A stretch of 64,000 nucleotides of DNA from a phage, in the NCBI GenBank assembly GCA_024571205.1, contig GCA_024571205.1_4523.1; one strand, given 5' to 3'. Positions 4,204-55,149 of this stretch are shown piece by piece (the stretch's first letter is position 1; the number at the start of each line of letters is the position of its first letter). Position numbers and translations under genes: made by a program. The notes beneath the pieces are model-generated. The model saw nothing but the letters and a program-made list of their open reading frames with translations. It searched no databases and was not told the origin of the DNA.

Positions 4204-4983
4204 TTAAATCCAGGAGCCGTAGATTGTGCCTGTAGCACCCCATGACGGTGAACTTCCGAATACTGCTCTGCCAGGAGCACCACCGCCAGATCTAGATAAG
4301 TGATTACCCCATCCATCTCCGCCACGACCTCCAGCATCACCGCCATTGCCTCCGCCGAATTGGGAAGTGTAACCGGCCCCGCCCGGGGCGTCATAACTAG
4401 CATTACCACCCGGCCAATTAACGCCACCTCCGCCGATGCCAAATGGTCTACCACCACCGCCACCTGCTGTAGCATTTGGCGCCCAGCTATTCTGTAATGA
4501 CACTGCACCACCTCCGCCACCGCCTGATGCAATAACACCATAGTTCCAAATACGAAGTCTTCCGCCGATATCATTTTGGATTACATCGCCACCATTAGTG
4601 CCTGGGTTTCCGTTTACAGTACCGTTACCACCTCGTCCCCACATATGAACTCCACCATGAATATTCAAAGTAACATATTCATTTGGCGTATCGCCATACA
4701 TAAAGAATAATGGAACATCTTTACTATATGATACCAAATTTCCGGTGATATTAAACACTATAGGTGCACTACCTGCCTCAAAACATCTATCTCGGAACCA
4801 TTGACCGTTGAAGTTATGGTCTGCTCCAAGTGTGTGAATTATTTCTCTTGAACGGCCCGCGAATTGGGACATCCATGAAGGGTTTCCTAAACGAAGTTCC
4901 CTTGAAGCAGCCGTCATCCATCTTTGTCCCGTTTCAGCAACGGCTGAAGTCCCAATCCAACCAGGGATTCCTACTACTGCCAT
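4204..4983 (-). CDS. 38: gp38 tail-fiber adhesin, T2 type, with glycine-rich motifs
   Basis: 259 aa, [24 protein letters not shown]-terminus and C-terminal half with repeated GGGGG motifs, directly downstream of gene 37. T2-type adhesin rather than the T4 chaperone form. Confidence 0.85.
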
Positions 4984-5013
4984 ATAAACCTCCAGGGCCC
5001 GAAGGCCCTTTTA

Positions 5014-8000
5014 TTATTTTATCAATGATTTAATTAATGCTTTCAATTCGGTAATTTCAGATTTCAATTCCTTGATTTCATCTGTATGCTCGTTTATTGC
5101 AGCTGTATTTAAACCAATAATACCGTTATAGTTCAAACGAAGCAGTCCGGTCTCTTTATCTTCAGAAACAAGTTCAGGTAATACTTCTTGAACTTCCTGA
5201 GCAATTAAACCTGCGGACGGTTTAACTTCGTCTGTAACAGAGTTTTTAAGCAGATAAGTATAACCGCCCAATAGTTTAGATTTCTCTTGAGCGTTCTTAA
5301 TAAGCTTAATTTCCGACTTACAACGAATATCAGAACGAATATAAACGTCGTTAACATCAATGTTATCACGAACATACATACCTGCATTACAGTGGAAGTT
5401 AACATCACCGAATGTCTGAGCTAAACCAGGTCTAAAACTAAACACACCTTGGCCGTTTGCATATGCGTTGAAAATACCATCGTTTTCCCAAAGCAAACCG
5501 GTATCGTTATCTCCAAGTACAATACACGGCCCGCCCCATGCAGGGTCACCACCACCAGCTGATACTCTACTGCTCTTAAGTAAGCTTGGAGCATAAAAAG
5601 TACCGTTATGATGGAATTCATATACAGCTTGTGGGTCGTAACCGTTTTCCTGATTACCTACACGAATAATACCTTGTGCCCATGTATTAGTAATGCGTCG
5701 CATACCAAAATCTACACCAGATATGTATCCTTCATTAGTAATACCGGATTTTCCTTTAATAATAGGATAATAACTATCATTACCAACATTACCAAAATCT
5801 ACAAATACCGGTGCTTCTTGATTCCATTGATTTCCCCAACCACCGCCCTGGTGTGCGGCCCATTGTGTACCGTTTATATGGAGGCGGTCTCTATTAAAAT
5901 TAAATGTTCCTTGGCCTTGAGGAGAAAGTGATATTTCTCCGTTATTTGTTATATATACACCGCCTTGTGTAACATAACTGTAAAAACCTAGACCATTGTC
6001 GGCACCGCCTTTACCAATATACCAATTATTGGCCCCGGCCGTATCAGAACGAATAAATGATGAATCACTGGTCAAAGGAGGATTAAGAACTATTCCAGCG
6101 GCATCTTTATTAATCCAAAGAGTGCCGGTCATCGTGTCGCCTTCTTTCGAAACACGAGTCGCAATAGCATCGCGAATATTTGTAGTATCACCGGCAGAAG
6201 TAAACGTTTTCCAGATATCAGACCAGATATTACCATTGCGAGCAATAGTAGCTTCACCGCCGCCAACAGAAACGTTATCTGGGAAGTTAACAGTACCGTC
6301 TTGATTAAAACGAGACGTATGGCCTTGTGATCCATCTTCTTTCAGATGATGAATAACGAATGTACCCGAATTAATTTCAGTACCTAAAGACCAAACGGCT
6401 TTACCATTTAAAAACTTCTGTTTAACAATAGGATAATATTTGCTTACAGCATCATCATCAATTTCCTGGAAAATAGGAGCCGCTTGGGCATATTGAATAT
6501 CATATCCACCTGCGCCAGCGCCATGTCCAACAAATTTAATATATCCGTTTGCTGCGAACGTATTGTAACTTGATTGTAAATCTGGAATAGTAACTTTACC
6601 AGTATCTAAAGCCAAACTAAACGGGCGAAGTGGGCCGATATCACCATTTTTGCCTTCGCCATAAGCAGTTGGAATAATATGAAGACTTCCTTCTGAACGT
6701 CTAAAAATGGCTCCATAATCTGCGTTCCAAATACGAAGAGCATTCACTGCTCCAGATGAAATTTCACCTGTTGTGTGAACTCCTCTATCTCCAGCAGTAA
6801 CACCAGATGATTCAAATGAACCATTAACGTTCATTTCTACTTCGCCAGTAGTAAGTCTTTGAATATAGCTCATCCAGCTAGTTGCATCAGAAATTTCCAT
6901 AACGTTTTTACGGATACCTCCGCTTGGATCAACAAACGTATTACCCCAAACTTTAATATCCATATTATCAACCGAGCTGTATCCTGTTGTGTTGCCTCTA
7001 AACATTAGTGTAGAAGAATTATTTCTACCATCTATATTTACAGAACCGCCAATAACGTCAATATTACCAGGAGTAACTAACAAACCGCCGTGAGTATTAA
7101 TGTTTGTAGTACCCTTGCCGCGGAAATAATGATGATAGTTACCGCCTTGATAATATCCCAAAAGAGTCTGACCATCTCCAAACGCGTTATTATCGTGATA
7201 TGTCACAACAGTAGCAAGAGCATAGTTTTCAGTTGGAGGAGTAGTTAAATCGGTTCCATTAGTAGAATATCCAGCTACAAATTTTCTTAGGCTAGTTGTT
7301 TCGCTAGGATTAAATAAAAACGTTTTTGTTCCATTATTAACGCTGAAATAATATCCGTCTTGATGCCATTTAAATCCAGTATCATTATCTCCTAAAGCAA
7401 TGCTAGATGGTCCTAATATTGAATAATCTTTATTACCTGGTGTTAAACCGATAGAAATTGAGTGACTTGATTTAATTCCGCCGCTCCAGGTAAATGACCA
7501 AAGATAAGCATCTAATCCATCTCCACTATACCAAGTTATTCCATCATTATCTTTAACTTCATGGAAAATACCAGAACCAACGGCATTACGCATGACACGA
7601 AGATGATTAATAGCAGTAGTGCTTTCAGACAATGGAACATTGTCTGCCATCGAATAGATGTCATAATCACCCGTAGATTTATTATTAGTAATGACTTTGT
7701 TGGTTAGAATTTGTGGAGACGAAATAGATTTCCATGCTGATACTTCAGGTGAAGTAAATAGTCCACTGCCTGAAAATGCATAAGTGCTTTCGCTACCAGC
7801 GGCATAGTCTTGAACCCTGATATTAAGTACTTGTGTAGTTAAACCATCATTAGCCGGGGCATAAATGATTCCGCGTTCGCGACTATTGTTATCGAAAAAA
7901 CGAACATGTGCTGTGCCTGAACTTTTTGTAATAAGTTCACCGCCTTCAGTCATAATCTGCCCGGCGGCAATAATATCGCGAGTTACTCGAGCAATACCAG

Positions 8001-15272: not shown

Positions 15273-15588
15273 TATTAAACCGGCCGATGAGGCCGATCTC
15301 TCTGAAAAAGAGTTAGCTATTAAACATGATAAAGACGATATTGCTAAATTGCTTGATCGCCAAGAAAATGGGTTCATTATCGAATCTATGGTCGAACAAT
15401 TCGGTATGTCTTATTTAGAAGCAACAACTGCTTTCTTGGAAGAGAACTCCATCCCCGAAACTCAGTTCGCTAAATTTATTCCTACAGGAATTGTTGAAAA
15501 AATTACAAGCGAAGCAATTGACGAAAACATGCTTCGCCCATCAGTTGCTCGTGGCGAAAAAACTAATACGTTAGATTTCTTATTATGA
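15250..15588 (+). CDS. 33: gp33 late transcription co-activator
   Basis: 112 aa, T4 gp33 length and order (after dsbA, before 59). Confidence 0.88.
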   Translation: MTLFSLSDIKPADEADLSEKELAIKHDKDDIAKLLDRQENGFIIESMVEQFGMSYLEATTAFLEENSIPETQFAKFIPTGIVEKITSEAIDENMLRPSVARGEKTNTLDFLL

Positions 15589-16238
15589 TTAAAATACGCA
15601 TGCCTCCTGACGGAGAACGTTATATTAACGGAAAATCGGTATACAAACTATACTTGATGTGCAAACAACATTTTAATGGTCGGTATGACGTAATCAAATA
15701 TAACTGGTGCATGCGTGTTTCGGATAATGCGTATCAAAAACGCCGAGATAAATATTTCTTTGAGAAACTAGCAGAGAAATATAAGTTAAAGGAACTCACC
15801 TTGATATTCATCAGTAACTTAGTTGCTAACCAAGACGCGTGGATTGGTGAGATATCAGACGCTGATGCATTAGTTTTCTATAGGGAATATATTGGACGTC
15901 TCAAACAAGCCAAGGAGACGTTTGCTGAAGATGTACGTAACATCTACTATTTCAGTAAGAAAGTGGAAGTTAGTGCGCTTCAAGAGATATTTGATTATAA
16001 TAATAAAGTTCAGTCGAGCTACATATTTAAATTGCTACAAAGCAATATAATTTCATTTGAAACCTTCTTGTTGTTGGATTCATTCTTGAATATTATAGAT
16101 AAGCACGACGAACTCACCGACAATTTAGTCTGGCAAAATTATTCTACCAAATTAAAGGCATATCGAAAAATACTTCAAATCGATGGAAATGCTGCTAAGA
16201 AATTGTTCATAGAAACAATCAAATCATGTAAGTATTAA
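15585..16238 (+). CDS. 59: gp59 helicase loader
   Basis: 217 aa, MIKIRMPPDGERYINGKSVYKLYLMCKQHFNGRYDVIKYNWCMRVSD matches T4 gp59. Confidence 0.92.
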   Translation: MIKIRMPPDGERYINGKSVYKLYLMCKQHFNGRYDVIKYNWCMRVSDNAYQKRRDKYFFEKLAEKYKLKELTLIFISNLVANQDAWIGEISDADALVFYREYIGRLKQAKETFAEDVRNIYYFSKKVEVSALQEIFDYNNKVQSSYIFKLLQSNIISFETFLLLDSFLNIIDKHDELTDNLVWQNYSTKLKAYRKILQIDGNAAKKLFIETIKSCKY

Positions 16239-16267
16239 GCTTTATTTCTTGTGTGTTAAAATTACTT

Positions 16268-16275
16268 TATAAATA
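16268..16275 (+). promoter_or_regulatory. late promoter (TATAAATA) upstream of gene 32
   Basis: Exact TATAAATA at 16268-16275; T4 gene 32 is known to be transcribed in all modes including late. Confidence 0.45.
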
Positions 16276-16285
16276 AATCATACCA

Positions 16286-16354
16286 GCTACGAGGTATAAG
16301 TGTCGTAGCAACCAACTGTAAATAAATTAAATAATCTAAATAAAGGTAAATATA
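16286..16354 (+). promoter_or_regulatory. gene 32 mRNA leader: hairpin plus AU-rich unstructured region (autogenous translational operator)
   Basis: 7-bp stem GCTACGA/TCGTAGC (16286-16292 / 16303-16309) followed by taaataaattaaataatctaaataaaggtaaatataATG, as in the T4 gene 32 operator. Confidence 0.5.
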
Positions 16355-17257
16355 ATGTTTAAACGTAAATCTACTGCTGACCTCGCTGCTCAAATGGCTA
16401 AACTGAACGGTAACAAAGGTTTCTCTTCAGAAGATAAAGGCGAATGGAAGCTGAAGCTAGATGCATCAGGTAATGGTCAAGCGGTAATTCGTTTCTTGCC
16501 AGCAAAAACTGATGATGCACTACCATTTGCAATTCTTGTTAACCACGGTTTCAAGAAAAATGGTAAATGGTATATTGAAAATTGCTCTTCTACACATGGT
16601 GATTACGACTCTTGTCCTGTATGTCAGTACATTAGTAAAAATGACCTGTACAATACCAACAAAACTGAATATTCTCAACTGAAACGTAAAACTTCTTATT
16701 GGGCTAATATTCTGGTTGTTAAAGACCCTCAAGCTCCAGATAACGAAGGTAAAGTATTTAAATATCGTTTCGGTAAAAAGATTTGGGACAAAATCAATGC
16801 AATGATTGCAGTTGATACCGAAATGGGTGAAACTCCAGTTGATGTTACTTGTCCGTTTGAAGGTGCTAACTTCGTTCTGAAAGCTAAGCAGGTTTCTGGT
16901 TTTAGCAACTATGACGAATCTAAATTCTTGGGTCAATCTGAAATTCCTCGTATTAATGACGAAGCATTCCAGAAAGAACTATACGACCAGATGGTAGACC
17001 TTACTACTTTGACGGCTAAAGACCAGTTCAAATCTTTTGAAAAATTAAATGAATCTTTCGCTAAGGTTCTTGGTACTGCCGCTCTTGGTGGTGCAGCAGC
17101 CGCAGCAGCTTCTGTTGCAGATAAAGTTGCTTCTGACCTTGACGATTTTGATAAAGACATGGAAGCCTTTAGTTCTGCAAAAACTGAAGATGACTTCATG
17201 AGCTCTACCTCATCCTCTGATGATGGCGACCTCGATGACCTGTTAGCTGGTCTATAA
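16355..17257 (+). CDS. 32: gp32 single-stranded DNA-binding protein
   Basis: 300 aa, [36 protein letters not shown]..., acidic C-terminal tail, preceded by the AU-rich leader typical of gene 32. Confidence 0.93.
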
Positions 17258-17263
17258 TAAATC

Positions 17264-17285
17264 GGGAGACTTCGGTCTCCCTTTT
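17264..17285 (+). terminator. rho-independent terminator after gene 32
   Basis: GGGAGAC-TTCG-GTCTCCC hairpin (17264-17281) followed by TTTT. Confidence 0.65.
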
Positions 17286-17312
17286 GAGTATCTGTAAATT
17301 ACTGAAAAAGTT

Positions 17313-17341
17313 GTTTACTTCTTCCATGGATGTGTTAGTAT
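17313..17341 (+). promoter_or_regulatory. T4-type early promoter
   Basis: GTTTACT -35, 16-nt spacer, TAGTAT -10, directly after the gene 32 terminator. Confidence 0.5.
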
Positions 17342-17370
17342 AGACCTATCAACAACATGAGGAAATCAAA

Positions 17371-17825: not shown

Positions 17826-18074
17826 ATGAGATTGCAACGTCAGAGCATCAAAGATTCTGAAGTTAGAGGTAAATGGTACTTCAACATCGTCGGTAAAGAC
17901 GCTGAACTCCTTGAACAAGCTGAAGAAGCTTTACGTGAAATGGGTTGGAACGAAGAATGTGATGGATGTCCACTCTATGAAGATGGTGAAAGTGCAGGAT
18001 TCTGGATTTGCCACTCTGACGTTGAAATGTTCAAAGCTGATTGGAAGGTTGTTAAGAAAAATCTGAGGAAATAA
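17826..18074 (+). CDS. hypothetical early protein
   Basis: ATG at 17826 after SD aaggag; the longer track ORF start (17763) lies inside promoter-like sequence. Confidence 0.5.
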   Translation: MRLQRQSIKDSEVRGKWYFNIVGKDAELLEQAEEALREMGWNEECDGCPLYEDGESAGFWICHSDVEMFKADWKVVKKNLRK

Positions 18075-18076
18075 AA

Positions 18077-18664
18077 ATGCTTAAATTAGTATTCGCATGC
18101 GCACCATCTAAAACAGTTGATGATAAACTGGAATATGCTTTTGGATTAGGTGATGGACTTCCATGGAAGCATATCAAACAAGATATGAGTAACTTTGTTG
18201 CTCGCACTAAAAACACTGTATTGGTTATGGGTGCTAAGACTTTTGCATCATTACCTCGTCTACTACCAGATCGTACTCATGTGGTTGTCACTGATATGGC
18301 CAGAAAACTGCCTAGGACTAAAACTGATGAACTTGCACGGTTCTATATCACCCAAGCAGAATTTATTACCCTGGTGACTGGTAGTGAAATTAACTTGTTC
18401 AGCCCTTCAACAGACGTACCGTTTAAACTTTCTACTGAACATGTTGATGTATCTGTTATCGGCGGTCCTGCCTTATTAAAACAAGCACTGCCTTATGCCG
18501 ATGAAATTGTGATGACTAAAATCATTAAGAAATGTCGTGTTAATTCCGATGTTCAACTTGATAAAGATTTCATCCAAGATATTATGCTTCAACGTTCTAT
18601 GGTAGAATCTCATTACTACAGAATCGATGAACTCACCGAAATTACTGAGAGCGTATATAAATGA
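18077..18664 (+). CDS. frd: dihydrofolate reductase
   Basis: 195 aa, ...AFGLGDGLPW...VMGAKTF...VIGGPALL motifs and T4 frd length, position before td. Confidence 0.9.
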   Translation: MLKLVFACAPSKTVDDKLEYAFGLGDGLPWKHIKQDMSNFVARTKNTVLVMGAKTFASLPRLLPDRTHVVVTDMARKLPRTKTDELARFYITQAEFITLVTGSEINLFSPSTDVPFKLSTEHVDVSVIGGPALLKQALPYADEIVMTKIIKKCRVNSDVQLDKDFIQDIMLQRSMVESHYYRIDELTEITESVYK

Positions 18665-19521
18665 AACAATACCAATACCTGATTAATGATATCCTAGAAA
18701 ATGGCTACGAAACAGACAACCGTACAGGCACAGGAACAATTGCCCTGTTCGGAACTAAATTACGTTGGGACCTGACTAAAGGATTCCCTGCAGTAACAAC
18801 TAAGAAATTAGCATGGAAAGCTTGTATTGCCGAGTTACTGTGGTTCATGTCCGGTTCTACTAATGTTAATGAATTACGTCTTCGTACTCATGGTAGTCTA
18901 ATTGAAGGTAAAACTATTTGGGACGATAATTACGAAAATCAGGCAAAAGACCTTGGTTATCATAGTGGTGAACTTGGTCCTATATATGGTAAACAATGGC
19001 GTGATTTCGGTGGTGTGGACCAATTAGTTGAAACAATCGACCGTATTAAAAAATTACCAACTGATCGTCGTCAAATTGTTTCTGCCTGGAACCCTGCCGA
19101 AATTGACCAAATGGCTCTTCCTCCTTGTCATATGTTCTATCAATTTAATGTGCGTAATGGTCATCTTGATTTACAATGGTATCAACGCAGTGTAGATGTT
19201 TTCTTGGGCCTGCCGTTCAACATTGCCTCGTACGCTGCCTTGACGCATATTGTGGCTAAGATGTGTAATCTTATCCCGGGTGATTTAGTATTCTCAGGCG
19301 GCAATACGCATATCTACAGCAACCATGTAGAGCAGTGCAAAGAAGTTCTTCGTCGTGAGCCTAAAGAACTGTGTGAACTTAAAATTGATTGGCCTGAAGG
19401 ATTCTCTGATTGGAGCACGACATTACAGCTTCATTGGGTAACAGAGCATATGAATCCGAGTGATTTCATTCTTAAAAATTACGAATCTCATCCAACTATC
19501 AAAGCTAAAATGGCGGTATAA
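18661..19521 (+). CDS. td: thymidylate synthase (intronless)
   Basis: 286 aa continuous ORF, MKQYQYLINDILENGYETDNRTGTGTIALFG...PPCHMFYQFNV...; no intron interrupts it, unlike T4 td. Confidence 0.93.
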   Translation: MKQYQYLINDILENGYETDNRTGTGTIALFGTKLRWDLTKGFPAVTTKKLAWKACIAELLWFMSGSTNVNELRLRTHGSLIEGKTIWDDNYENQAKDLGYHSGELGPIYGKQWRDFGGVDQLVETIDRIKKLPTDRRQIVSAWNPAEIDQMALPPCHMFYQFNVRNGHLDLQWYQRSVDVFLGLPFNIASYAALTHIVAKMCNLIPGDLVFSGGNTHIYSNHVEQCKEVLRREPKELCELKIDWPEGFSDWSTTLQLHWVTEHMNPSDFILKNYESHPTIKAKMAV

Positions 19522-19776
19522 ATGATTTTACGTTTTATTAATTCATATGGCACCACAATTTTTGAAATGAAAAATCCAAGTGAACTGGATATCCCTTCAC
19601 CAAATAGTGAAATCACGGTTAAAGGTGAACGATTCGTTTGTTATTCACATGAACGAATTTATGAATATCGTGAATTTTGTGGTGGTTACGGTATGGAAAA
19701 AGAACCATTGGTTTATTTCGATATCACGGTCTTGACTCCTAAAGAATACAAAGAAATTATTGCTAAGAATAATTAA
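19522..19776 (+). CDS. hypothetical protein between td and nrdA
   Basis: 84 aa ORF starting at the td stop. Confidence 0.5.
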   Translation: MILRFINSYGTTIFEMKNPSELDIPSPNSEITVKGERFVCYSHERIYEYREFCGGYGMEKEPLVYFDITVLTPKEYKEIIAKNN

Positions 19777-19865
19777 CGCTTCAGTTTAAAAGTGTATAAT
19801 AAATTAACGGGATAAATACTATCCCCCGTTTGGAGTAATGTCTATCAACCTATACCGAGGAATAT

Positions 19866-22121
19866 ATGCAAGTAACTAAGAGCAGTGGGGTATCCCAAAA
19901 TTTTGATGCACAGAAAATTATTCAAGTATTAACGTGGCAATGTGAAGGAACACAAATCGACCCATATGAATTGTACGAAGAAATTAAGACCCATCTTGTT
20001 GACGGGATGAGCACCAAAGATATTCAGAAGATTTGTATTAAAGTTGCAGCCAACTCGATTTCTGTCGAAGAACCTGATTATCAATATGTTGCCGCTAAAG
20101 GATTAATGTTTGCACTTCGTAAAGATGTGTACGGACAGTTTGAACCTCCTGCTTTTATCGACCATATCTCGTATTGTGTTAATGAAGGCAAATACGATCC
20201 TGAGTTGTTGTCTAGATATTCTGCAGAAGAAATCATTTATCTTGATTCTCGGATTAAACATGAGCGAGATTTTGATCTGACTTATGCTGGTGCTATGCAG
20301 CTTAAAGAAAAATACCTGGTTAAAGATAAAACAACTGGGAAGATTTATGAAACTCCACAGTTTGCTATCATGGCTATCGGTATGGCCTTACATCAAGACG
20401 AAACTCATGACCGTTTGAAACATATTATTCGTTTTTATGATGCCGTTTCTACTCATCAAGTTTCATTGCCTACTCCAATTATGGCAGGTGCTCGTACTCC
20501 AACTCGCCAGTTCTCTAGTTGTGTAGTTATTGAAGCCGGCGATTCGTTAAAATCTATTAACAAAACTTCAGCATCAATTATTGAATATATTTCTAAACGA
20601 GCTGGTATCGGTATCAACGTTGGTATGCTTCGTGCAGAAGGTTCTAAGATCGGTATGGGTGAAGTTCGACATACAGGTGTTATTCCATTCTGGAAACATT
20701 TCCAAACTGCAGTAAAATCTTGTTCTCAAGGTGGTATTCGTGGTGGTGCTGCTACAGCGTATTATCCAATGTGGCACTTAGAAGTAGAGAACCTATTAGT
20801 TCTGAAAAATAACAAAGGCGTGGATGAAAACCGTATTCGACATATGGACTACGGAATTCAGATTAATGACCTCATGATGGAACGCCTTGGTAAAAATGAT
20901 TATATTACTTTATTTAGCCCTCACGAAATGTCAGGCGAACTATATTACTCATTCTTTGAAGATCAAGATAAATTCCGTGAGCTTTATGAGAAAGCTGAAA
21001 AAGACCCAACAATCAGAAAGAAAAGAATCAAAGCACTAGAACTCTTTGAATTGTTCATGACTGAACGTTCTGGTACTGCTCGAATTTATCCACAGTTTGT
21101 TGATAACACGAATAACTACACTCCATTTATTCGTGAAAAAGCTCCAATTCGTCAGAGTAACTTATGTTGTGAAATCGCTATTCCAACTAATGATGTGAAT
21201 GGCCCTGATGCTGAAATTGGTTTATGCACGTTATCTGCTTTTGTATTAGATAAATTTGATTGGCAAGACCAAGATAAAATTAATGAACTTGCTGAAGTAC
21301 AAGTACGTGCACTTGATAACCTGTTAGACTATCAAGACTATCCGGTTCCAGAAGCTTTAAAAGCCAAAAAGCGTCGAAATCTCGGTGTTGGTGTGACGAA
21401 CTATGCTGCATGGTTAGCTTCTAACTTTGCTTCATATGAAGACGCTAACGATTTGACTCATGAATTGTTTGAGAGATTGCAATATGGCCTTATCAAAGCA
21501 TCAATCAAACTCGCCAAAGAAAAAGGATGTTGCGAGTATTATTCAGACACTAAATGGTCTAGAGGCGAATTACCTATCGACTGGTACAATAAAAAGATTG
21601 ACCAAATCGCAGCCCCGAACTACGTCTGTGACTGGGAAGAACTTCGAGCTGAACTCAAAGAACACGGAATTCGTAACTCAACGTTGTCTGCACTCATGCC
21701 ATGCGAATCAAGCAGCCAGGTCTCAAATAGCACAAACGGTATTGAACCACCTCGTGGCCCAGTAAGTATTAAAGAATCTAAAGAAGGTAATTTCCGTCAA
21801 GTAGTTCCTAATATTGAACACAACATGGGTCTTTATGACTATGCGTGGAAACTTGCTAAGAAAGGTAATAAACCTTATTTGACCCAAGTTGCTATCATGT
21901 TGAAATGGGTGTGCCAATCTGCTTCTGCTAATACTTACTATGATCCTGCAGTATTTGAGAAAGGTAAAGTGCCAATGTCAGTAATGCTTGACGATCTGCT
22001 TTACTTCTGGTACTTTGGCGGAAAAAACCTCTACTATCATAACACTCGTGATGGGTCAGGTACAGATGACTATGAATTAGAAACACCTAAAGCTGAAGAT
22101 TGTTCTGCTTGTAAGCTTTAA
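19866..22121 (+). CDS. nrdA: aerobic ribonucleoside-diphosphate reductase alpha subunit
   Basis: 751 aa, class Ia RNR large subunit features, T4 NrdA length. Confidence 0.93.
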   Translation: MQVTKSSGVSQNFDAQKIIQVLTWQCEGTQIDPYELYEEIKTHLVDGMSTKDIQKICIKVAANSISVEEPDYQYVAAKGLMFALRKDVYGQFEPPAFIDHISYCVNEGKYDPELLSRYSAEEIIYLDSRIKHERDFDLTYAGAMQLKEKYLVKDKTTGKIYETPQFAIMAIGMALHQDETHDRLKHIIRFYDAVSTHQVSLPTPIMAGARTPTRQFSSCVVIEAGDSLKSINKTSASIIEYISKRAGIGINVGMLRAEGSKIGMGEVRHTGVIPFWKHFQTAVKSCSQGGIRGGAATAYYPMWHLEVENLLVLKNNKGVDENRIRHMDYGIQINDLMMERLGKNDYITLFSPHEMSGELYYSFFEDQDKFRELYEKAEKDPTIRKKRIKALELFELFMTERSGTARIYPQFVDNTNNYTPFIREKAPIRQSNLCCEIAIPTNDVNGPDAEIGLCTLSAFVLDKFDWQDQDKINELAEVQVRALDNLLDYQDYPVPEALKAKKRRNLGVGVTNYAAWLASNFASYEDANDLTHELFERLQYGLIKASIKLAKEKGCCEYYSDTKWSRGELPIDWYNKKIDQIAAPNYVCDWEELRAELKEHGIRNSTLSALMPCESSSQVSNSTNGIEPPRGPVSIKESKEGNFRQVVPNIEHNMGLYDYAWKLAKKGNKPYLTQVAIMLKWVCQSASANTYYDPAVFEKGKVPMSVMLDDLLYFWYFGGKNLYYHNTRDGSGTDDYELETPKAEDCSACKL

Positions 22122-22176
22122 GACTTTTGATTATAATTTACTCATGGATGAGTTAATAACTAAGTGAGAAAATATA

Positions 22177-23355
22177 ATGAGTACAGTTTTTAACACGCAA
22201 CAAGTCGATGTTTTGAATGAACCGATGTTCTTTGGTTCTGGTCTTGGCCTCGCACGGTATGATATTCAGCGTCATAAAGTTTTCGAAGAACTTATAGAAA
22301 AATCCTTGTCATTTTTCTGGCGTCCAGAAGAGGTAAACTTGATGTTGGACTCTGCGCAGTTCAATAAGCTTCCTCAGTTCCAACAGGACATCTTTACAAA
22401 CAATCTTAAGTATCAATCATTATTAGATTCTATCCAAGGCAGGGCCCCATCTGCGGTACTTATGGCACTGATTTCTGACCCTTCATTAGATACATGGGTC
22501 GCAACATGGACATTCAGTGAAACTATTCACTCTCGTTCGTATACTCATATTATGCGAAATCTTTATACTGATCCATCGAAGGTATTTGATGAAATTGTAT
22601 TAGATGAAGCTATTATGAAACGCGCTGAATCCATTGGACGTTATTATGATGACGTTTTGATTAAAACCCGTGAATGGGAAAATGCTAAAGAAATTTTTAA
22701 GTGTTTTTCCGAAAATGAATATGATTTAGATGCATATTCAAATAGTCTTATGCACATTGAAGAATGTAAACATGACCTAATGAAGTCTCTTTATCTCTGT
22801 TTGCATGTTATCAACGCCTTAGAAGCTATTCGTTTTTACGTATCATTTGCATGTACTTTCAACTTCCATAAAAATATGGAAATTATGGAAGGCAATGCAA
22901 AGATTATGAAGTTCATTGCTCGTGACGAACAACTCCATCTCAAGGGTACTCAGTACATTATCCGTCAACTTCAATCTGGTACTGACGGTGATGAGTGGGT
23001 TCAAATTGCTAAAGAATGTGAACAAGAAGCAGTTGACATTTTTATGGAAGTAAATAGTCAAGAGAAGGAATGGGCTGCACACCTTTTTAAAGATGGTACA
23101 TGTCCAGGTATCAATACTCAGAGTATGTGTGCTTTTGTTGATTACTTGACTGTGTCTCGTATGAAACAGTGCGGTTTGCCATGCCCAATCACTGACGCTC
23201 CGACCAAGCATCCGTATCCTTGGATTCGTGAATATCTGAACTCTGATTTAGTTCAAGCAGCTCCTCAGGAAGTTGAAATCAGTTCTTATCTTGTTGCACA
23301 AATTGATAATGATGTAGACCAAAATGTAATCAATTCATACAAAAAATATTTCTAA
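22177..23355 (+). CDS. nrdB: aerobic ribonucleoside-diphosphate reductase beta subunit (intronless)
   Basis: 392 aa continuous ORF with di-iron/tyrosyl-radical type sequence; no intron, and only 55 bp separate it from nrdA. Confidence 0.93.
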   Translation: MSTVFNTQQVDVLNEPMFFGSGLGLARYDIQRHKVFEELIEKSLSFFWRPEEVNLMLDSAQFNKLPQFQQDIFTNNLKYQSLLDSIQGRAPSAVLMALISDPSLDTWVATWTFSETIHSRSYTHIMRNLYTDPSKVFDEIVLDEAIMKRAESIGRYYDDVLIKTREWENAKEIFKCFSENEYDLDAYSNSLMHIEECKHDLMKSLYLCLHVINALEAIRFYVSFACTFNFHKNMEIMEGNAKIMKFIARDEQLHLKGTQYIIRQLQSGTDGDEWVQIAKECEQEAVDIFMEVNSQEKEWAAHLFKDGTCPGINTQSMCAFVDYLTVSRMKQCGLPCPITDAPTKHPYPWIREYLNSDLVQAAPQEVEISSYLVAQIDNDVDQNVINSYKKYF

Positions 23356-23356
23356 G

Positions 23357-23380
23357 GACGGGACTTCGGTCCCACTTTAT
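23357..23380 (+). terminator. hairpin / probable terminator after nrdB
   Basis: GGGAC-TTCG-GTCCC hairpin followed by a T-rich tract (actttatt). Confidence 0.45.
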
Positions 23381-23381
23381 T

Positions 23382-23792
23382 ATGAAAGATATTGCCGCCG
23401 AATATTCCTTTATTAAATATATAGAATTGGAGCTATTAGAAGATGCAACAATTAAAACCATTGATGCCCCTAATAAGAAAAATGTCATATACGCTATTGC
23501 TATAGATGACGAACTTGTGTATATTGGTAAAACCAAGAATTTAAAGAAACGCATTAACTATTATCGAACAGCCATAAATCGAAAAGACCAGACTTCAGAT
23601 TCAAGAAAATCACTTATGATTTTGGATGCCTTAATGCAAGGCAAAAAGGTTGAATTCTGGGCCCGCCAATGTTTTGACCTTTCAGTCACTAACGAACTTG
23701 GTTCAATGACCATTGCAACAATGGACCTTGAAGAACCACTTTTTATCAAAAAGTTCAACCCGCCTTGGAATATCCAACATAAGAAAAAGTAG
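23382..23792 (+). CDS. denA: endonuclease II (GIY-YIG family)
   Basis: 136 aa, ...VIYAIAIDDELVYIGKTKNLKKRINYYRT... GIY-YIG motif; same length and near-identical to T4 EndoII. Confidence 0.88.
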   Translation: MKDIAAEYSFIKYIELELLEDATIKTIDAPNKKNVIYAIAIDDELVYIGKTKNLKKRINYYRTAINRKDQTSDSRKSLMILDALMQGKKVEFWARQCFDLSVTNELGSMTIATMDLEEPLFIKKFNPPWNIQHKKK

Positions 23793-23821
23793 TTTACATA
23801 CCACAAGGATTGTGGTACAAT
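23792..23821 (+). promoter_or_regulatory. T4-type early promoter for rnlA
   Basis: GTTTACA -35, 17-nt spacer, TACAAT -10. Confidence 0.5.
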
Positions 23822-23839
23822 TTAAAAAAAACTAACTGA

Positions 23840-24973
<1,134 letters not shown>

Positions 24974-28800: not shown

Positions 28801-28920
28801 TGAGAGCTATCTCATTACTATCGAGAATGGTCATAAATCTGAGCACTACCAACTTAGCCTGTCTAATCCGGTTAAAGGTATTGTTGAATCAGAATCTGTT
28901 TATATCTCCTAAGGATTGTT

Positions 28921-29913
28921 ATGTTACCTGTTGTCGGAAAACTTATTTCTCCAAAAGAACTGGCTGAGATTATTCCTTTGTCGGAAGCTTACGCATCACA
29001 AGTGGCTTCTCATCGCGAACAAGTTAATTCGATTATGAATGGTGAAGACCCACGCAAACTTATTGTTGTAGGTCCTTGTTCAATTCATGACCCTATTGCT
29101 GCTGTTGAATACGGCAAACGTCTGGCTGAACTTCAAACTCGTCTTCCTAATGTTCTGTTAGTGATGCGCGTTTATTTTGAAAAGCCTCGAACTACCGTAG
29201 GTTGGAAAGGTCTTGTAAATGATCCATATCTTGACGGAAGTTTTGATATGAACCACGGTCTTATAGTTGCACGAACATTGTGTCGTAAACTTCTACGTAT
29301 GGGACTTCCATTAGCAACTGAAGTATTAGACCCATTCACGATTAAGTATCTTTCTGGTATTTTCTCATGGGTTGCTATTGGCGCCCGTACGACTGAAAGT
29401 CAGACACATCGTGAAATTGCTTCAGGTCTACCGATGTGCGTAGGCTTCAAGAACGCAACCAATGGTTCTATTAAAGTAGCTACAGACGCGATGTATAGTG
29501 CCGCCTGGCCTCATCGGTATATTGGTATGGACGTCGATGGTACTGTAGGCATTGTTGAAGCTGAAGGTAATCAGAATACGCATATCGTATTGCGTGGCGG
29601 GACCAACGGCCCGAACTATCATTCTTCTGATATTCAAGAAGCTTCTAACAAAGCAAGGGCAGTAGGTCTGAATCATTATGTAATGGTTGACTGTAGCCAT
29701 GCAAACGCTGAAGGGCATTATAGCAATCAAATTGGTATTGGTAAAAATTTAGCAGCTAATGATTTGGTCAAAGGAATTATGATAGAATCGTTCCTACATG
29801 AAGGAAATCAAAAAATTTCTGATAATATGTCCTATGGCGTTTCCGTTACCGATGCGTGCATCAGTTGGGAACAAACTAAAGAGCTGTTAACTTATATTAA
29901 TAAGGTTCAATAA
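28921..29913 (+). CDS. 3-deoxy-D-arabino-heptulosonate-7-phosphate (DAHP) synthase, class I alpha (AroG/AroF/AroH-like)
   Basis: 330 aa with the hallmark motifs LIVVGPCSIHDP, FEKPRTTVGWKGLVNDP, IGARTTESQ, CVGFKNATNGS, VDCSHANAEG, ESFLHEGNQ, TDACISWEQT, colinear with E. coli AroG as recalled. Confidence 0.85.
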   Translation: MLPVVGKLISPKELAEIIPLSEAYASQVASHREQVNSIMNGEDPRKLIVVGPCSIHDPIAAVEYGKRLAELQTRLPNVLLVMRVYFEKPRTTVGWKGLVNDPYLDGSFDMNHGLIVARTLCRKLLRMGLPLATEVLDPFTIKYLSGIFSWVAIGARTTESQTHREIASGLPMCVGFKNATNGSIKVATDAMYSAAWPHRYIGMDVDGTVGIVEAEGNQNTHIVLRGGTNGPNYHSSDIQEASNKARAVGLNHYVMVDCSHANAEGHYSNQIGIGKNLAANDLVKGIMIESFLHEGNQKISDNMSYGVSVTDACISWEQTKELLTYINKVQ

Positions 29914-33044: not shown

Positions 33045-33079
33045 ATTAATTGGGAGCTTCGGCTCCCAGTGAGGAAATT

Positions 33080-33694
33080 ATGTTTAAAGTTAATACTTTT
33101 TATAAAATGAATTTTAAAAATGGGGATATTACTCCACGCCTTAAAAACATGTTCTCATATGACCTTATCGAGCCTTTTGAAGTTTTAGAAGTTACTGATG
33201 CTGGCTCGGTTTGTGAAATTAGAACTTCTGAAGGTAAAATTTATCAGGCAGGTGTTGGTAAATTCAGTAATTGTTTTACTTTAATATTCTCGACCGATTT
33301 AGATGAGCATTTTATTGAATGTCCTAACCCTAAGGTCTATGAAGTTCCACATCAAGAAATTAAGAAAAATGGCCCGCACGAATATACGAAGGTTGAAACT
33401 CCTCACGGCGTGATGTGGCGTCATAACTCTCCTTTTGGAAGTAAAGGAACATTTGCTCAACCGTCTAAACCGTATGACGATGAAAAATACATCGTCGTCT
33501 TTTTATCTGAACAGGGTACTCAAGACCGTGGATGCCAACGTTCCGGATTATTGAGTGAACTCGAAGCTCATAACCAAGCACGTGAATTCGTTGAGAAAAA
33601 TCCTGGTTCTGAAGCTCTAGTCATGAAAGCAATTACTCAATATATCACTGCTCAACCTGTTGTTCATCCGGTGGAAATTAATTTCGTTAAGTAG
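33080..33694 (+). CDS. hypothetical protein
   Basis: 204 aa from ATG 33080 (SD gagg); the track start at 33050 lies inside a hairpin (33052-33067). Confidence 0.55.
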   Translation: MFKVNTFYKMNFKNGDITPRLKNMFSYDLIEPFEVLEVTDAGSVCEIRTSEGKIYQAGVGKFSNCFTLIFSTDLDEHFIECPNPKVYEVPHQEIKKNGPHEYTKVETPHGVMWRHNSPFGSKGTFAQPSKPYDDEKYIVVFLSEQGTQDRGCQRSGLLSELEAHNQAREFVEKNPGSEALVMKAITQYITAQPVVHPVEINFVK

Positions 33695-33724
33695 TTTACA
33701 TCCAAGGACGGATTAGAGTATAAT
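33694..33724 (+). promoter_or_regulatory. T4-type early promoter
   Basis: GTTTACA -35, 18-nt spacer, TATAAT -10. Confidence 0.45.
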
Positions 33725-33748
33725 GATTTCTTTAGCAAGTGGAAAAAT

Positions 33749-33946
33749 ATGAAATTTTTAATAGCACAAACAGTCCAATTAAAAGGTGTTGGAATCCCTG
33801 GGATGATTTTTAAAGTTCTCCATGAATTTAAAACCGCCGCCGTAATTATCAATGAAGCGTATGCTGTTCAATGGGTTGATGGGACTTCTGACATACGTAT
33901 GGGTAAAGAGTTATCTCCTATTAAAGGGTTGAAACATGTTGAATAA
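33749..33946 (+). CDS. hypothetical protein
   Basis: 65 aa ORF after early promoter 33694-33724. Confidence 0.4.
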   Translation: MKFLIAQTVQLKGVGIPGMIFKVLHEFKTAAVIINEAYAVQWVDGTSDIRMGKELSPIKGLKHVE

Positions 33947-48204: not shown

Positions 48205-48438
48205 TTAGAAGTCTTCTTCCACATCCTCATCATCGTCGCCTTCAAGTTCGGCACGCTTACCTGCTAAGGCATCCCTGACAGAAATATCATCTGTATCTTT
48301 TAATTCCGTTTCTTTTATACGTTTCTTATAATAAGCTTCCAATTCTTCAAGCCCTTCTAGGGTATGACAACTAGCAATTTTACCCATGAATTCGTCAATA
48401 GATGCTTCGTATAAAAATTGTTTAAATTCAAGTACCAT
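48205..48438 (-). CDS. UvsW.1-like small acidic protein
   Basis: 77 aa with acidic C-terminus (DDDEDVEEDF), immediately downstream of uvsW on the same strand. Confidence 0.7.
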   Translation of the reverse strand: MVLEFKQFLYEASIDEFMGKIASCHTLEGLEELEAYYKKRIKETELKDTDDISVRDALAGKRAELEGDDDEDVEEDF

Positions 48439-48463
48439 TTTTATCTCCTAAGGGCCGAAGCCC

Positions 48464-49978
48464 TTATAAATTAATTGTTTTCATTACATAGTTAAATTTC
48501 TCATCAGCGTAACGCTGGATACGATCAATACCGTGTTTTAACAAGTAATTAAGATGAGTATACTTCTTTTTAGTATTTAATGATTTAGGTTTTACACCTG
48601 CGTCATCGATGAGATCCCAAACTGTAGCAACAGCTTTAGAACCATGCTTACGAAGCACACGACCTACTGTTTGAAGTACGATAATTTTTGATTTAACACC
48701 ATGGGCAAAAATAACATGATGAAGATTCTTGACTGAAATACCGGTAGAGAATACTCCATATGATGCGACAATAATAATGCCTTTACCATTTTCTGCCATG
48801 ACTTTAAGCGCGTTACGTGTTTCAGTATCAACTTCACCTGATACGTAATAAACTTTTTCGTATCCAAGCTCTTTAATAGCTTCAAATATTTCTTTACCGT
48901 GTGTAACATGTTTAAACATTACAAAGGCGTTCTCGTCTTTCTTGGCTAATTTGACTGAAAGTTGAGCAATCCACTTTGTACGACGTTTTAGTCCGGTAAT
49001 AATTTTAACTTCTTCTTGGTATGTTTTACCTTTTAATTTGGTGGCGAATTCGTCTGGATAACGAAGGAAAATACTATTAATCTTAAGCTCAGTTACCTGT
49101 CCGTCTTCCATTAATTTAGACGTGCTAACAGGACGGAAGATTTCGCCGAACATACCTACGTACTGCATTACATTGGCTTTTCCGTCTCTTAATGAGCCAG
49201 ATAAACCGAATTTAAACATGCAATTATTTAATCCTGAGATGATTGAAGAAATACTTTTGCCTGTTGCTAAGTGGCATTCATCGTTCATCATCATACCGAA
49301 CTGAGAGAACCATTCTTTAGGCTGCTTAACTACCGTTTGCCATGTGCCAACAATAATTGGAGCGTCGTTTTTAGCTCTGTCTGCTTTATCAGCACCACCG
49401 CCAATTTTCTTAATCATCGAATGACTAAACAAGCGATAATCAACAAAATCATTAGCCATCTGGGTTGTCAATGCTGTTGTAGGGACGATAATGAGAATTT
49501 TACCTTCATAGTTCTCTAGATAATACCGAGATAAAAGTGCTTGGATTAGTGATTTACCTGCTGATGTCGGAAGGTTTAAAATTCGACGACGATTAACTAG
49601 TCCTTCATATACTGCATCTTTTTGATACCAATGTGGTTCGATTTTGGCGTTGCCCGAATAAATTTCTTGTTTAGAAAGCCACGCGTCAAAATCTTCCCTG
49701 GTAAGGTCTTCAGTCTCAAAGATTTTAGGGTCAATCCATATAGAATAACTCATATTGTTACAGAACTTTTTTATTTGTCCTACAAGACCATATGGTAACA
49801 AACGATTGTAATCTAAAAGTCGAATTCTACCATCCCATTGCCCATAGCGATATTTTGGGTTAAATTTATACCCGTCGGCTTCAAAGCTAAAAAAGTCACG
49901 AAGTTCGTAAAACGTACTTTCGTCGCATTCAATGCGAACGTGACTAAAATCATAAAAATGTACTTTAATGTCAGTCAT
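48464..49978 (-). CDS. uvsW: UvsW DNA/RNA helicase
   Basis: 504 aa, MTDIKVHFYDFSHVRIECDESTFYELRDFFSFEADGYKFNP..., Walker A region PTSAGKS and DECH box MMMNDECH; matches T4 UvsW. Confidence 0.93.
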   Translation of the reverse strand: MTDIKVHFYDFSHVRIECDESTFYELRDFFSFEADGYKFNPKYRYGQWDGRIRLLDYNRLLPYGLVGQIKKFCNNMSYSIWIDPKIFETEDLTREDFDAWLSKQEIYSGNAKIEPHWYQKDAVYEGLVNRRRILNLPTSAGKSLIQALLSRYYLENYEGKILIIVPTTALTTQMANDFVDYRLFSHSMIKKIGGGADKADRAKNDAPIIVGTWQTVVKQPKEWFSQFGMMMNDECHLATGKSISSIISGLNNCMFKFGLSGSLRDGKANVMQYVGMFGEIFRPVSTSKLMEDGQVTELKINSIFLRYPDEFATKLKGKTYQEEVKIITGLKRRTKWIAQLSVKLAKKDENAFVMFKHVTHGKEIFEAIKELGYEKVYYVSGEVDTETRNALKVMAENGKGIIIVASYGVFSTGISVKNLHHVIFAHGVKSKIIVLQTVGRVLRKHGSKAVATVWDLIDDAGVKPKSLNTKKKYTHLNYLLKHGIDRIQRYADEKFNYVMKTINL

Positions 49979-50007
49979 GTCAAATTACCATGTAATAAAT
50001 ATAGTTA

Positions 50008-50015
50008 TATTTATA
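50008..50015 (-). promoter_or_regulatory. late promoter for uvsW
   Basis: TATAAATA on the minus strand, 30 nt upstream of the uvsW start. Confidence 0.45.
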
Positions 50016-50028
50016 ATGAGGAAATACT

Positions 50029-50697
50029 ATGATCGATAAAGACTATATTGAAGAGTTACGTGCTCTTTCCGATAAAAAGGAAGCCAAAGCTAAACTGTTC
50101 GAATATGCGAAACAATTTGGCATTAGTGTTAAGAAAACAAAATCATTCGATAATATTGTTGTTGATATCGAAGAAGCTCTTAACGCACTGGCTGATGAAC
50201 CATTACCTGAAACTGATGGATTATCTATCACCGATTTAATTACTGCCGCAGATGATGTGGACGGTGTTAATTTCACCAACGAAGAAGTTAAAGAAGAAGC
50301 TATTCTGTTGTTTGATTCTCCAACAGAACAAGTTGAAGTATTAGAAGTTGTCGAACAAGAAAAAGAATTCGACCATGATAAATTTGAAGAAGCAATTACT
50401 AAGGTTGTTGAATCTGAAAAAGAGCCTGAGACAGAGGTAAATAAAGAAGTAAAATTTGTTCTGCCTGAAAATTTTAGTCCTACACTCATTAAATTAGGCA
50501 AAGGTCCAGGATATGTTACTGTTCCTTGGTGGATTTATCAATGGATAGCCGAAACACCTGATTGGAAATCTCACCCAACGAGTTTTGTGCATGCTTCTGC
50601 TCACCAAACATTATTTAGCTTAATTTATTATATTAATCGCGATGGATCAGTTCTAATTCGTGAAACTCGTAATTCTTCTTTCGTAACATTAAAATAA
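50029..50697 (+). CDS. hypothetical protein; possibly Inh (prohead protease inhibitor) by position
   Basis: 222 aa with an acidic central region, located between uvsW and hoc where T4 carries inh. Identity not verified. Confidence 0.4.
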   Translation: MIDKDYIEELRALSDKKEAKAKLFEYAKQFGISVKKTKSFDNIVVDIEEALNALADEPLPETDGLSITDLITAADDVDGVNFTNEEVKEEAILLFDSPTEQVEVLEVVEQEKEFDHDKFEEAITKVVESEKEPETEVNKEVKFVLPENFSPTLIKLGKGPGYVTVPWWIYQWIAETPDWKSHPTSFVHASAHQTLFSLIYYINRDGSVLIRETRNSSFVTLK

Positions 50698-50706
50698 GGA
50701 TAACTT

Positions 50707-52122: not shown

Positions 52123-52126
52123 TCGT

Positions 52127-52148
52127 AAGGGGCTTCGGCCCCTTTCTT
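52127..52148 (+). terminator. rho-independent terminator after hoc
   Basis: GGGGC-TTCG-GCCCC hairpin followed by a T-rich tract. Confidence 0.55.
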
Positions 52149-52222
52149 CGTTTTAAAGCATATAAACCACAACTTGAGATTGATGTATATAATGGCACAA
52201 ACCAAATAATACTGGATTGATT

Positions 52223-52665: not shown

Positions 52666-52667
52666 TA

Positions 52668-52693
52668 TGCTTTACATTTTTTGATGGTATAAT
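52668..52693 (+). promoter_or_regulatory. candidate MotA-dependent middle promoter upstream of rnlB
   Basis: MotA box TGCTTTA (52668-52674), 13-nt spacer, TATAAT (52688-52693). Confidence 0.4.
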
Positions 52694-53792: not shown

Positions 53793-53794
53793 CG

Positions 53795-55143: not shown

Positions 55144-55149
55144 AAGATT

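Follow-up and report, generated by a model that had tools for sequence, protein, structure and literature searches.

Introns and homing endonuclease genes have been known since the late 1980s to be irregularly distributed among T-even-type phages, and RB69 is their textbook element-free relative. The annotation of T4 (NC_000866) has I-TevI inside td and I-TevIII inside nrdB; mobE occupies the gap that separates nrdA from nrdB, segE the one between inh and uvsW, and segD the one between 23 and 24. These positions agree with those given in an initial annotation of the DNA studied here, and the T4 record also shows nrdB.1 between nrdA and nrdB and segG between 59 and 32. RB69 is without group I introns (PMC1524935) and is predicted to be without homing endonuclease genes (PMC2993671). 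Homing into intron-free alleles is a unidirectional gene conversion in which the flanks are co-converted (PMC2988022, PMC2790892). The I-TevI site spans 38 bp and is cut 23 and 25 nt upstream of the insertion point, with a requirement for CXXXG (PMC2988022); the I-TevI operator, which has 15 of 20 bases in common with the homing site, is bound with equal affinity and is cleaved about 100-fold less efficiently, a weakness that the same review attributes to the absence of CXXXG (PMC2988022). I-TevIII cuts 14 and 16 bp upstream of its insertion point (PMC1865063).

Judged from its nucleotide sequence, the 64-kb stretch of DNA analysed here (the window) comes from the genome of an RB69-like T-even-type coliphage. 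Its 94.8–99.7% nucleotide identity to Mosigvirus records places it in that genus of RB69-like Tevenvirinae, and over positions 18000–24000 it is 99.0% identical to phage PECP20 and 94.8% identical to RB69 (Mosigvirus RB69, AY303349). The window is collinear with RB69 across its whole length, with the same gene order, including frd-td-nrdA.2-nrdA-nrdB-denA, and RB69 has the same empty layout, with uninterrupted td (861 bp), nrdA (2256 bp) and nrdB and the same 55-bp spacer between nrdA and nrdB. The two differ in that RB69ORF245c, about 238 bp upstream of frd.2, is absent from the window, which for its part has, between cd.2 and cd, a DAHP synthase gene without counterpart in RB69, and in the length of the nrdB product (392 aa in the window, 390 aa from a 1173-bp coding sequence in RB69). 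The host genes have orthologues in T4, arranged in the same order, but the I-TevI and I-TevIII introns, mobE, segG, segE and segD are all six absent from the window. Because RB69 has this same empty layout and has been published as free of introns and homing endonuclease genes, the element-free state reported below is correct as an observation but ordinary for RB69-like phages and not new; taken alone it matters little, and its practical value is modest.

Uninterrupted genes and empty insertion sites

The td gene (18661–19521, plus strand) encodes a 286-aa thymidylate synthase that matches Pfam Thymidylat_synt (PF00303) end to end (profile positions 1–266 of 266, E = 6e-97). Global protein alignment to spliced T4 Td gave 237 identical residues out of 286 and runs ungapped across the exon junction, and the T4 td insertion point maps to a single window position, between 19209 and 19210. 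The empty I-TevI homing site (positions −27 to +11) accordingly lies at 19183–19220 on the plus strand, located by alignment to the T4 exon junctions. Its cleavage motif, CAACG at 19183–19187 (−27 to −23), has the required 5'-CNNNG-3' form and lies at the right distance from the insertion point for cuts at 23 and 25 nt upstream. The site matches T4 at 32 of 38 bases; all six differences are synonymous and leave the encoded QRSVDVFLGLPFNIASYA identical to that of T4. Three of them are neighbouring substitutions, TCA to AGT at −21 to −19, in the spacer adjoining the cleavage motif. In the primary binding region of about 20 bp (−8 to +12), 16 of 20 bases match T4, and this region probably retains what binding requires. 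The initial annotation had identified this part of td as the I-TevI homing site with synonymous changes, which agrees with our alignment; the string it quoted, CAACGCAGTGTAGATGTTTTCTTGGGCCTGCC, occurs once in the window, at 19183–19214 on the plus strand, and had been given a start 3 bp too far to the right. Over the shared span, the window site is identical to those of RB69, CCU7 and moskry, the homing-site sequence of RB69 differing from that of the window by one base, at +15.

The nrdA gene (19866–22121, plus strand) encodes the 751-aa large subunit of a class Ia ribonucleotide reductase, also uninterrupted, with a PF02867 match (E = 2e-132), N-terminal and ATP-cone domains and 656 residues identical to T4 NrdA. 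Its empty site, defined by blastn breakpoints and junction sequences, is at 21204–21234 on the plus strand, directly after the codons of the NLCCEI active site. The 55-bp spacer that follows nrdA (22122–22176, plus strand) corresponds to the position that in T4 holds mobE and nrdB.1. Beyond it, nrdB (22177–23355, plus strand) encodes a 392-aa ribonucleotide reductase small subunit (Ribonuc_red_sm, PF00268, E = 2e-37). In a global protein alignment, 334 of 388 residues are identical to spliced T4 NrdB and the junction is ungapped; the sole indel, of 4 aa (window residues 191–194), precedes the junction by about 30 residues. The nrdB intron insertion point is again a single position, between 22852 and 22853, and the empty I-TevIII site around it (22823–22872, plus strand), for which we used the junctions in T4, JM17 and PTE-Eco05, matches T4 at 44 of 50 bases, with differences at −14, −8, −2, +5, +8 and +20. 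I-TevIII would be expected to make its two cuts here at 14 and 16 bp before 22852|22853.

Both target sequences, 84–88% identical between T4 and the window, are more conserved than the genes that contain them: 84% (32/38) for the td site against 74.9% for the whole td gene, and 88% for the nrdB site against 79.5% across nrdB. The empty sites are well conserved because the endonucleases recognise codons under strong protein-level constraint, here the QRSVD...LGLPFN segment of thymidylate synthase and conserved segments of NrdA and NrdB.

The other T4 endonuclease positions are empty as well. The 59-32 spacer (16239–16354), which holds segG in T4, is 116 bp long, and the uvsW-inh spacer (49979–50028), which holds segE in T4, measures exactly 50 bp, between uvsW (48464–49978, minus strand) and inh (50029–50697, plus strand). 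The 23-24 spacer (55109–55531), the place of segD in T4, is unlike the others in not being short (423 bp); it holds an 89-aa ORF (55210–55479, plus strand) and no endonuclease gene. These measurements bear out the initial annotation, which had described td (286 aa) and nrdB (392 aa) as continuous, nrdA and nrdB as 55 bp apart, uvsW and an inh-like gene as about 50 bp apart, and the T4 positions as free of homing endonuclease genes.

Occupied sites and conversion tracts in relatives

Close relatives carry elements exactly at the sites that are empty in the window. Element-carrying Mosigviruses (AV110, LF82-4, TH12, JM17, PTE-Eco05, NRG-P0074, ECO111 5-P and ESh27) have backbones 93–96% identical to the window, but they hold from one to at least three elements in the td–nrdB region, and SegE-like or SegD-like genes among the head genes; the window has none of these. 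A td intron of 1016–1017 nt is found at the identical position in about 20 records with Mosigvirus-type td exons; megablast coverage of td plus intron failed to separate the genera, Tequatrovirus exons also being joined, and identity bands were used instead. In AV110 the td intron encodes a 245-aa protein that is 88.6% identical to I-TevI. The nrdA site is occupied in JM17 and PTE-Eco05 by a 933-bp insertion encoding a mobE-like HNH endonuclease (45% identical to T4 MobE), and the insert gave no Rfam intron match. A 247-aa ORF lies at the uvsW-inh position in NRG-P0074 and ESh27, its NRG-P0074 product being SegE-like, and NRG-P0074 has a SegD-like gene at the 23-24 position.

Several of these alleles are bordered by traces of gene conversion. 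With the window and RB69 as Mosigvirus references, T4-type allele runs in PTE-Eco05 and JM17 exactly flank the nrdA insert (21227–21242 in window coordinates) and the nrdB intron (22785–22875), and outside these tracts the background of both phages is of Mosigvirus type. LF82-4, which has the td intron, and LF82-9, which does not, differ at 13 positions in 5.9 kb, 12 of them within a 97-bp tract equivalent to 19182–19278 of the window. This pattern points to a recent conversion at the td site, which could have run in either direction, as gain or as loss. A small-ORF plus SegD-like cassette is also among the features of the relatives, and the conversion tracts, the LF82 pair and this cassette are more informative than the empty sites themselves.

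The occupied alleles of congeners at the identical position and the conversion tracts support the proposal of the initial annotation that this genome may be a recipient for intron homing in mixed infection. These alleles and tracts, like the absence of elements from the window and the positions and conservation of its sites, are direct observations; from them we infer how cleavage and homing might proceed in this phage. If the phage infected a cell together with an element-carrying relative of sufficient flanking homology, I-TevI would bind around 19202–19221 and cut within CAACG (19183–19187), 23 and 25 nt before the insertion point, and double-strand-break repair would copy the intron, along with a little of the adjoining donor exon, into 19209|19210. 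Homing at the nrdB site and at the sites of the free-standing endonucleases would follow the same course.

The intron-free recipients of T-even crosses, T2 and T4 intron-deletion constructs, resemble the window in having an uninterrupted target gene with an intact recognition site. They differ in belonging to another genus, and the homology of the window to T4 donors is much lower than that of T2; the exons flanking the insertion points are 75–80% identical to T4. RB69-type phages moreover exclude T4, and recombination between RB69 and T4 has not been observed (PMC2993671). Because of this exclusion T4 is a poor donor for the window phage, and an intron-carrying Mosigvirus is the appropriate one. 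The empty-site coordinates are now exact and public genomes supply congeneric donors (for example AV110, LF82-4, JM17 and NRG-P0074); phages of this type could therefore serve as clean recipients in homing and marker-exclusion crosses.

Origin of the element-free state

We consider it very probable that td, nrdA and nrdB of the window simply represent the element-free state of RB69 and of the majority of the genus, in which sporadic selfish elements are not carried. Another history, in which an ancestor carried the td intron, the nrdB intron or free-standing endonuclease genes and lost them precisely, would leave the same layout. Gene conversion from an element-free co-infecting relative offers a route, and the sites would then be healed rather than naive. 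Such an event may have happened in the LF82 pair, whose conversion is recent and could have run either way, and on the exon-1 side of its td site (−35 to −5) the window has the same sequence as AV110, JM17 and LF82-4, which carry the intron. The same −35 to −5 sequence is, however, common to the intron-free RB69, CCU7 and moskry and is therefore simply the common Mosigvirus allele. At −1 the window also has C, where the intron-carrying alleles all show the T that is needed for the G-U pair of P1, and no T4-type or other foreign allele runs surround its sites, in a comparison for which the window itself, with RB69, is a reference. Element-free records are in the majority, the td intron being present in roughly 20 of about 156 close records (approximate counts, as the BLAST tables include duplicate RefSeq and GenBank records). 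On these grounds we regard a precise loss as improbable.

We give similarly little credence to the idea that the emptiness of the six hot-spots (td, nrdA, nrdB, 59-32, uvsW-inh and 23-24) is actively maintained, by RB69-type exclusion or by selection, rather than a matter of sampling. Were it true, the phage would be refractory in vivo despite its presumably cleavable sites.

It is less likely still that the synonymous changes in the target sites are escape mutations that make the phage immune to T4-type endonucleases rather than a recipient. The td site does have six synonymous differences from T4 in 38 bp, with three adjoining the cleavage motif, five of the nrdB-site differences fall within −14 to +8, and RB69 excludes T4 and not the reverse (PMC2993671). 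Yet each site is better conserved than the gene around it (td, 84% versus 75%; nrdB, 88% versus 79.5%), the opposite of what targeted escape would produce. The td site has preserved the critical CAACG motif and its spacing, and the AGT, CTG and TTC variants are kept in the exons of intron-carrying congeners.

Search for introns and endonuclease genes

The reading that the window carries no such elements was examined with searches of its whole sequence. A scan at the Rfam gathering threshold returned nothing and was dropped as evidence, because known T-even introns score 34–36 bits against a 50-bit cutoff. In the E-value-mode scans that replaced it, Intron_gpI (RF00028) had no match at E ≤ 1 in 18000–24000 and none at E ≤ 0.1 in the whole 64-kb window, and the same scan of PTE-Eco05, as a positive control, detected its td and nrdB introns (E = 2e-6 and 1e-5). 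We also ran phmmer with 15 queries, 13 T4 and Mosigvirus endonucleases (among them I-TevI, I-TevIII, MobE, SegD, SegE and SegG) plus T4 nrdA.1 and nrdB.1, against the 935 stop-to-stop ORFs of at least 30 aa in the window; this set covers the GIY-YIG Seg/I-TevI and HNH Mob/I-TevIII types, and within that scope it returned no homologue (best E = 0.023). The window thus shows neither a group I catalytic core nor a split coding sequence in td or nrdB, and it has no ORF similar to the GIY-YIG Seg/I-TevI or HNH Mob/I-TevIII types. An intron or endonuclease ORF emerging on closer alignment, the outcome that the initial annotation said would overturn its reading, was sought with Rfam, phmmer and alignments and was not found; aligned with the T4 exon junctions, td and nrdB are gapped at neither.

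That the searches missed a decayed intron, the remains of an endonuclease or a homing endonuclease of unfamiliar type in or near the interval, for which one might point to the gathering threshold that would miss T-even introns and to three ORFs of no known function (the 84-aa nrdA.2, the 89-aa ORF of the 23-24 spacer and a 214-aa ORF at 33050–33694), is exceedingly unlikely given the negative E-value-mode scans with a working control, the alignment of td, nrdA and nrdB, with nothing inserted, to their counterparts in T4 and RB69, the conservation of nrdA.2 in T4 and RB69, the absence of Pfam nuclease domains from the function-less ORFs tested and the negative phmmer result with GIY-YIG and HNH queries.

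Several candidates were rejected as homing endonucleases. The nrdA.2 homologue (19522–19776, plus strand; 84 aa, DUF5496, Pfam PF17600, phrog_2458), named as in the RB69 annotation, is a conserved gene of T4 and RB69. Downstream of nrdB, denA (23382–23792, plus strand; phrog_1111) has a GIY-YIG fold (Pfam GIY-YIG, E = 2.6e-6) but, by the RB69 and T4 annotations, encodes endonuclease II, an enzyme of host-DNA degradation conserved in both phages. The 89-aa ORF in the 23-24 spacer has no Pfam nuclease domain and was negative in phmmer. Of the stretches that do not align to RB69, those with ORFs of substantial size (28815–29910 and 33086–33933) were rejected by their ORF content, which consists of the DAHP synthase and proteins of no known function.

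A scan for promoters and terminators in 18000–24000 gave chance-level results only. Some relatives carry extra small ORFs that have no endonuclease annotation in their records: CCU7 has an additional 240 bp upstream of frd, NHEP36 an additional 358 bp upstream of td, and moskry an additional 206 bp, with an extra small ORF, upstream of nrdA.

Uninterrupted genes in an RB69-like region

Megablast matched positions 18000-24000 to 846 phage records, 156 of them at identities of at least 90%; these belong to the genus Mosigvirus, the RB69-like phages. The top match was Escherichia phage PECP20 (99.0% across the full 6 kb), RB69 was 94.8% identical, and RB69 is collinear with the whole window from gene 52 to gene 17. 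The best database match shifts along the window, from PECP20 here to phage CAU_ECP01 at 48400-57200 (99.7% identity), which fits mosaic relationships among Mosigvirus isolates. The plus strand carries, in order, genes 59 (15585-16238) and 32 (16355-17257), then frd.2, frd.1 and frd, td (18661-19521), nrdA.2 (19522-19776), nrdA (19866-22121), nrdB (22177-23355), denA (23382-23792) and rnlA. Between gene 32 and frd.2, at 17258-17370, a stretch of ~238 bp with RB69ORF245c (the frd.3 position) is missing; relatives (CCU7, NHEP36 and moskry) vary in small optional ORFs at this place, as they do ahead of frd, td and nrdA.

The initial annotation had read td and nrdB as uninterrupted, and both readings hold: td is a single 286-aa ORF spanning the entire Pfam thymidylate synthase profile (E = 6e-97) and nrdB a single ORF of 392 aa. 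The nrdA gene is also a single ORF (751 aa). For comparison, the T4 genes were spliced from NC_000866 (td exons of 549 and 312 nt around an intron of 1017 nt; nrdB exons of 664 and 503 nt around one of 598 nt). In protein alignments, 237 of 286 residues were identical for Td and 334 of 388 for NrdB, and alignment at the T4 exon junctions, the check proposed initially, was gap-free in both genes. The nrdA-nrdB and uvsW-inh spacers measure 55 and 50 bp, as first reported. The T4 elements named for these loci are borne out by the T4 annotation: td holds I-TevI and nrdB holds I-TevIII, mobE (together with nrdB.1) lies in the nrdA-nrdB gap, segE separates inh from uvsW, and segD separates 23 from 24; T4 also has segG between 59 and 32.

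RB69 is predicted to be without homing-endonuclease genes (PMC2993671), group I introns were not found in it (PMC1524935), and that T-even introns are patchily distributed has long been known (works cited in PMC2988022). The element-free reading of the window therefore holds, and it describes an ordinary state that was known before.

Searches for hidden introns and endonucleases

A default Rfam scan gave no match, a null result that is uninformative because the introns of the positive control, the intron-carrying Mosigvirus PTE-Eco05, score below the gathering cutoff (36 bits in td and 34 in nrdB, versus 50). In E-value mode the control introns were detected at E = 2e-6 and 1e-5, and no group I intron was found at E <= 1 in 18000-24000 or at E <= 0.1 across all 64 kb. 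When T4 I-TevI, I-TevIII, MobE, SegD, SegE and SegG and six Mosigvirus endonucleases were used as phmmer queries against every stop-to-stop ORF of 30 aa or more in the window (935 ORFs), no homing-endonuclease homologue better than E = 0.02 was found. The denA product was rejected as a candidate; despite its GIY-YIG fold, it is endonuclease II, conserved in T4 and RB69.

The main stretches that find no partner in the RB69 alignment hold genes for a DAHP synthase and for functionally uncharacterized proteins, in which no nuclease domain was found. The synthase (28921-29913, plus strand) is a 330-aa class I, AroG/F/H-like enzyme (PF00793, E = 9e-75; phrog_5045, E = 8e-182), and its gene sits between cd.2 and cd, in ~1.1 kb of DNA that RB69 lacks; it appears to be an auxiliary gene of the aromatic-amino-acid pathway in a T-even-type phage. 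The place of RB69 gene 30.6 is 847 bp long in the window versus 283 bp in RB69 and holds a 214-aa ORF (33050-33694, plus strand; phrog_17531, unknown function) with no Pfam domain.

Empty target sites and their occupied counterparts

The td insertion point lies at 19209/19210, between GGC and CTG, and that of nrdB at 22852/22853, between GCAT and GTAC; site positions below are counted from these points. The homing-site string quoted initially is present, at 19183-19214, starting 3 bp to the left of where it had been placed, and the changes relative to T4 over -27 to +11 are indeed all synonymous (differences at -21, -20, -19, -1, +3 and +9, the first three being a serine TCA to AGT). I-TevI recognizes a 38-bp target, cuts 23 and 25 nt upstream of the insertion point, and is broadly tolerant of substitutions, yet requires a correctly placed CXXXG; its operator, with 15 of 20 bases in common with the homing site, is bound equally tightly (PMC2988022). 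The window has CAACG at -27 to -23, and 16 of 20 bases of its primary binding region are those of T4. At the nrdB site, where I-TevIII cuts 14 and 16 bp upstream (PMC1865063), 44 of 50 bases match T4, with differences at -14, -8, -2, +5, +8 and +20.

Identity to T4 is higher at each site than across its gene (td, 84% versus 74.9%; nrdB, 88% versus 79.5%), which argues against escape by synonymous drift. The td site of intron-free RB69 differs from that of the window by one base, intron-free CCU7 and moskry have the identical site, and intron-carrying AV110, JM17 and LF82-4 are identical to the window on the exon-1 side.

In many congeneric phages, elements occupy exactly the positions that are element-free in the window. 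Among relatives whose sequenced junctions were examined, the td intron is 1016-1017 nt long in AV110, LF82-4, TH12, F27, JM17, PTE-Eco05 and ECO111 5-P; the 245-aa product of the AV110 copy has 88.6% identity to I-TevI. In ~20 records, among them the 2004 partial sequence from phage TuIa, the intron lies between td exons of Mosigvirus type. JM17 and PTE-Eco05 share a 1.1-kb nrdB intron, whose 269-aa protein is 95.5% identical to the I-TevIII relic of T4 over the shared part, and a 933-bp insertion directly after the NrdA NLCCEI active-site codons (4720-5652 in the PTE-Eco05 sequence, L007; window-equivalent 21204-21234). This insertion encodes a MobE-like HNH protein (45% identity), and no intron signal was found in it, so nrdA seems to be divided into two genes in these phages, an arrangement like that in Aeromonas phage Aeh1. 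Several Tequatrovirus-type phages have the insert at 99% identity or more, and 35 records contain it in all. In ECO111 5-P a Mob-like gene precedes nrdA, and the uvsW-inh spacer of NRG-P0074 and ESh27 holds a 247-aa ORF, SegE-like in NRG-P0074, the protein compared (48.6% identity to T4 SegE). The 23-24 spacer of NRG-P0074 in turn holds a SegD-like gene (58% identity). The window region is the element-free allele at a set of polymorphic insertion sites, the common state in Mosigvirus.

The window's own 23-24 spacer (55109-55531, 423 bp) is endonuclease-free yet not empty. It holds an 89-aa ORF (55210-55479, plus strand; phrog_6003, unknown function), antisense to the head genes, with its own promoter-like element, strong ribosome-binding site and terminator hairpin. 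In NRG-P0074 (L013, 7544-8473 region) the counterpart protein is 31% identical, the DNA flanks are 95-96% identical, and the SegD-like gene follows directly; the small ORF may travel with a SegD-type enzyme or be its target.

Conversion tracts and possible donors

At 945 sites with one base in the window and RB69 and another in T4, PTE-Eco05 and JM17 are ~95% Mosigvirus-type. T4-type alleles run directly beside their nrdA insertion (window-equivalent 21227-21242) and around the nrdB intron (22785-22875 in PTE-Eco05, 22815-22875 in JM17). Such runs in Mosigvirus-type backbones are direct sequence evidence for movement of the nrdA and nrdB elements between Tequatrovirus-type and Mosigvirus-type genomes. 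LF82-4, which has the td intron, and LF82-9, which lacks it, come from one isolation series and form a near-isogenic natural pair: with the intron left out of the comparison, they differ at only 13 positions over 5.9 kb. Of these, 12, all substitutions, fall within window-equivalent 19182-19278 (-28 to +69 relative to the insertion point). The cleavage motif of intron-free LF82-9 is CAGAG, not CAACG, and still satisfies CNNNG. The T4-type runs and the LF82 pair show that gene conversion occurred at these sites. The T4-type tracts go slightly beyond the 2010 reviews, which saw no convincing evidence for element movement between genome types, and bear on the relatives rather than the window.

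It is reasonable that the window phage could receive an intron. Co-infection with T4, as initially suggested, is a weak test of homing, since window and T4 exons are only 75-80% identical and RB69 is reported to exclude T4, with recombination between them not observed (Petrov et al., PMC2993671); a congeneric donor is suited. Minor-groove binding by I-TevI has been linked to tolerance of heavily modified T-even DNA (PMC2988022), from which we expect that the enzyme would not be blocked by cytosine modification of the RB69 type. In the sister phages, a natural counterpart of the intron-receipt experiment already exists.
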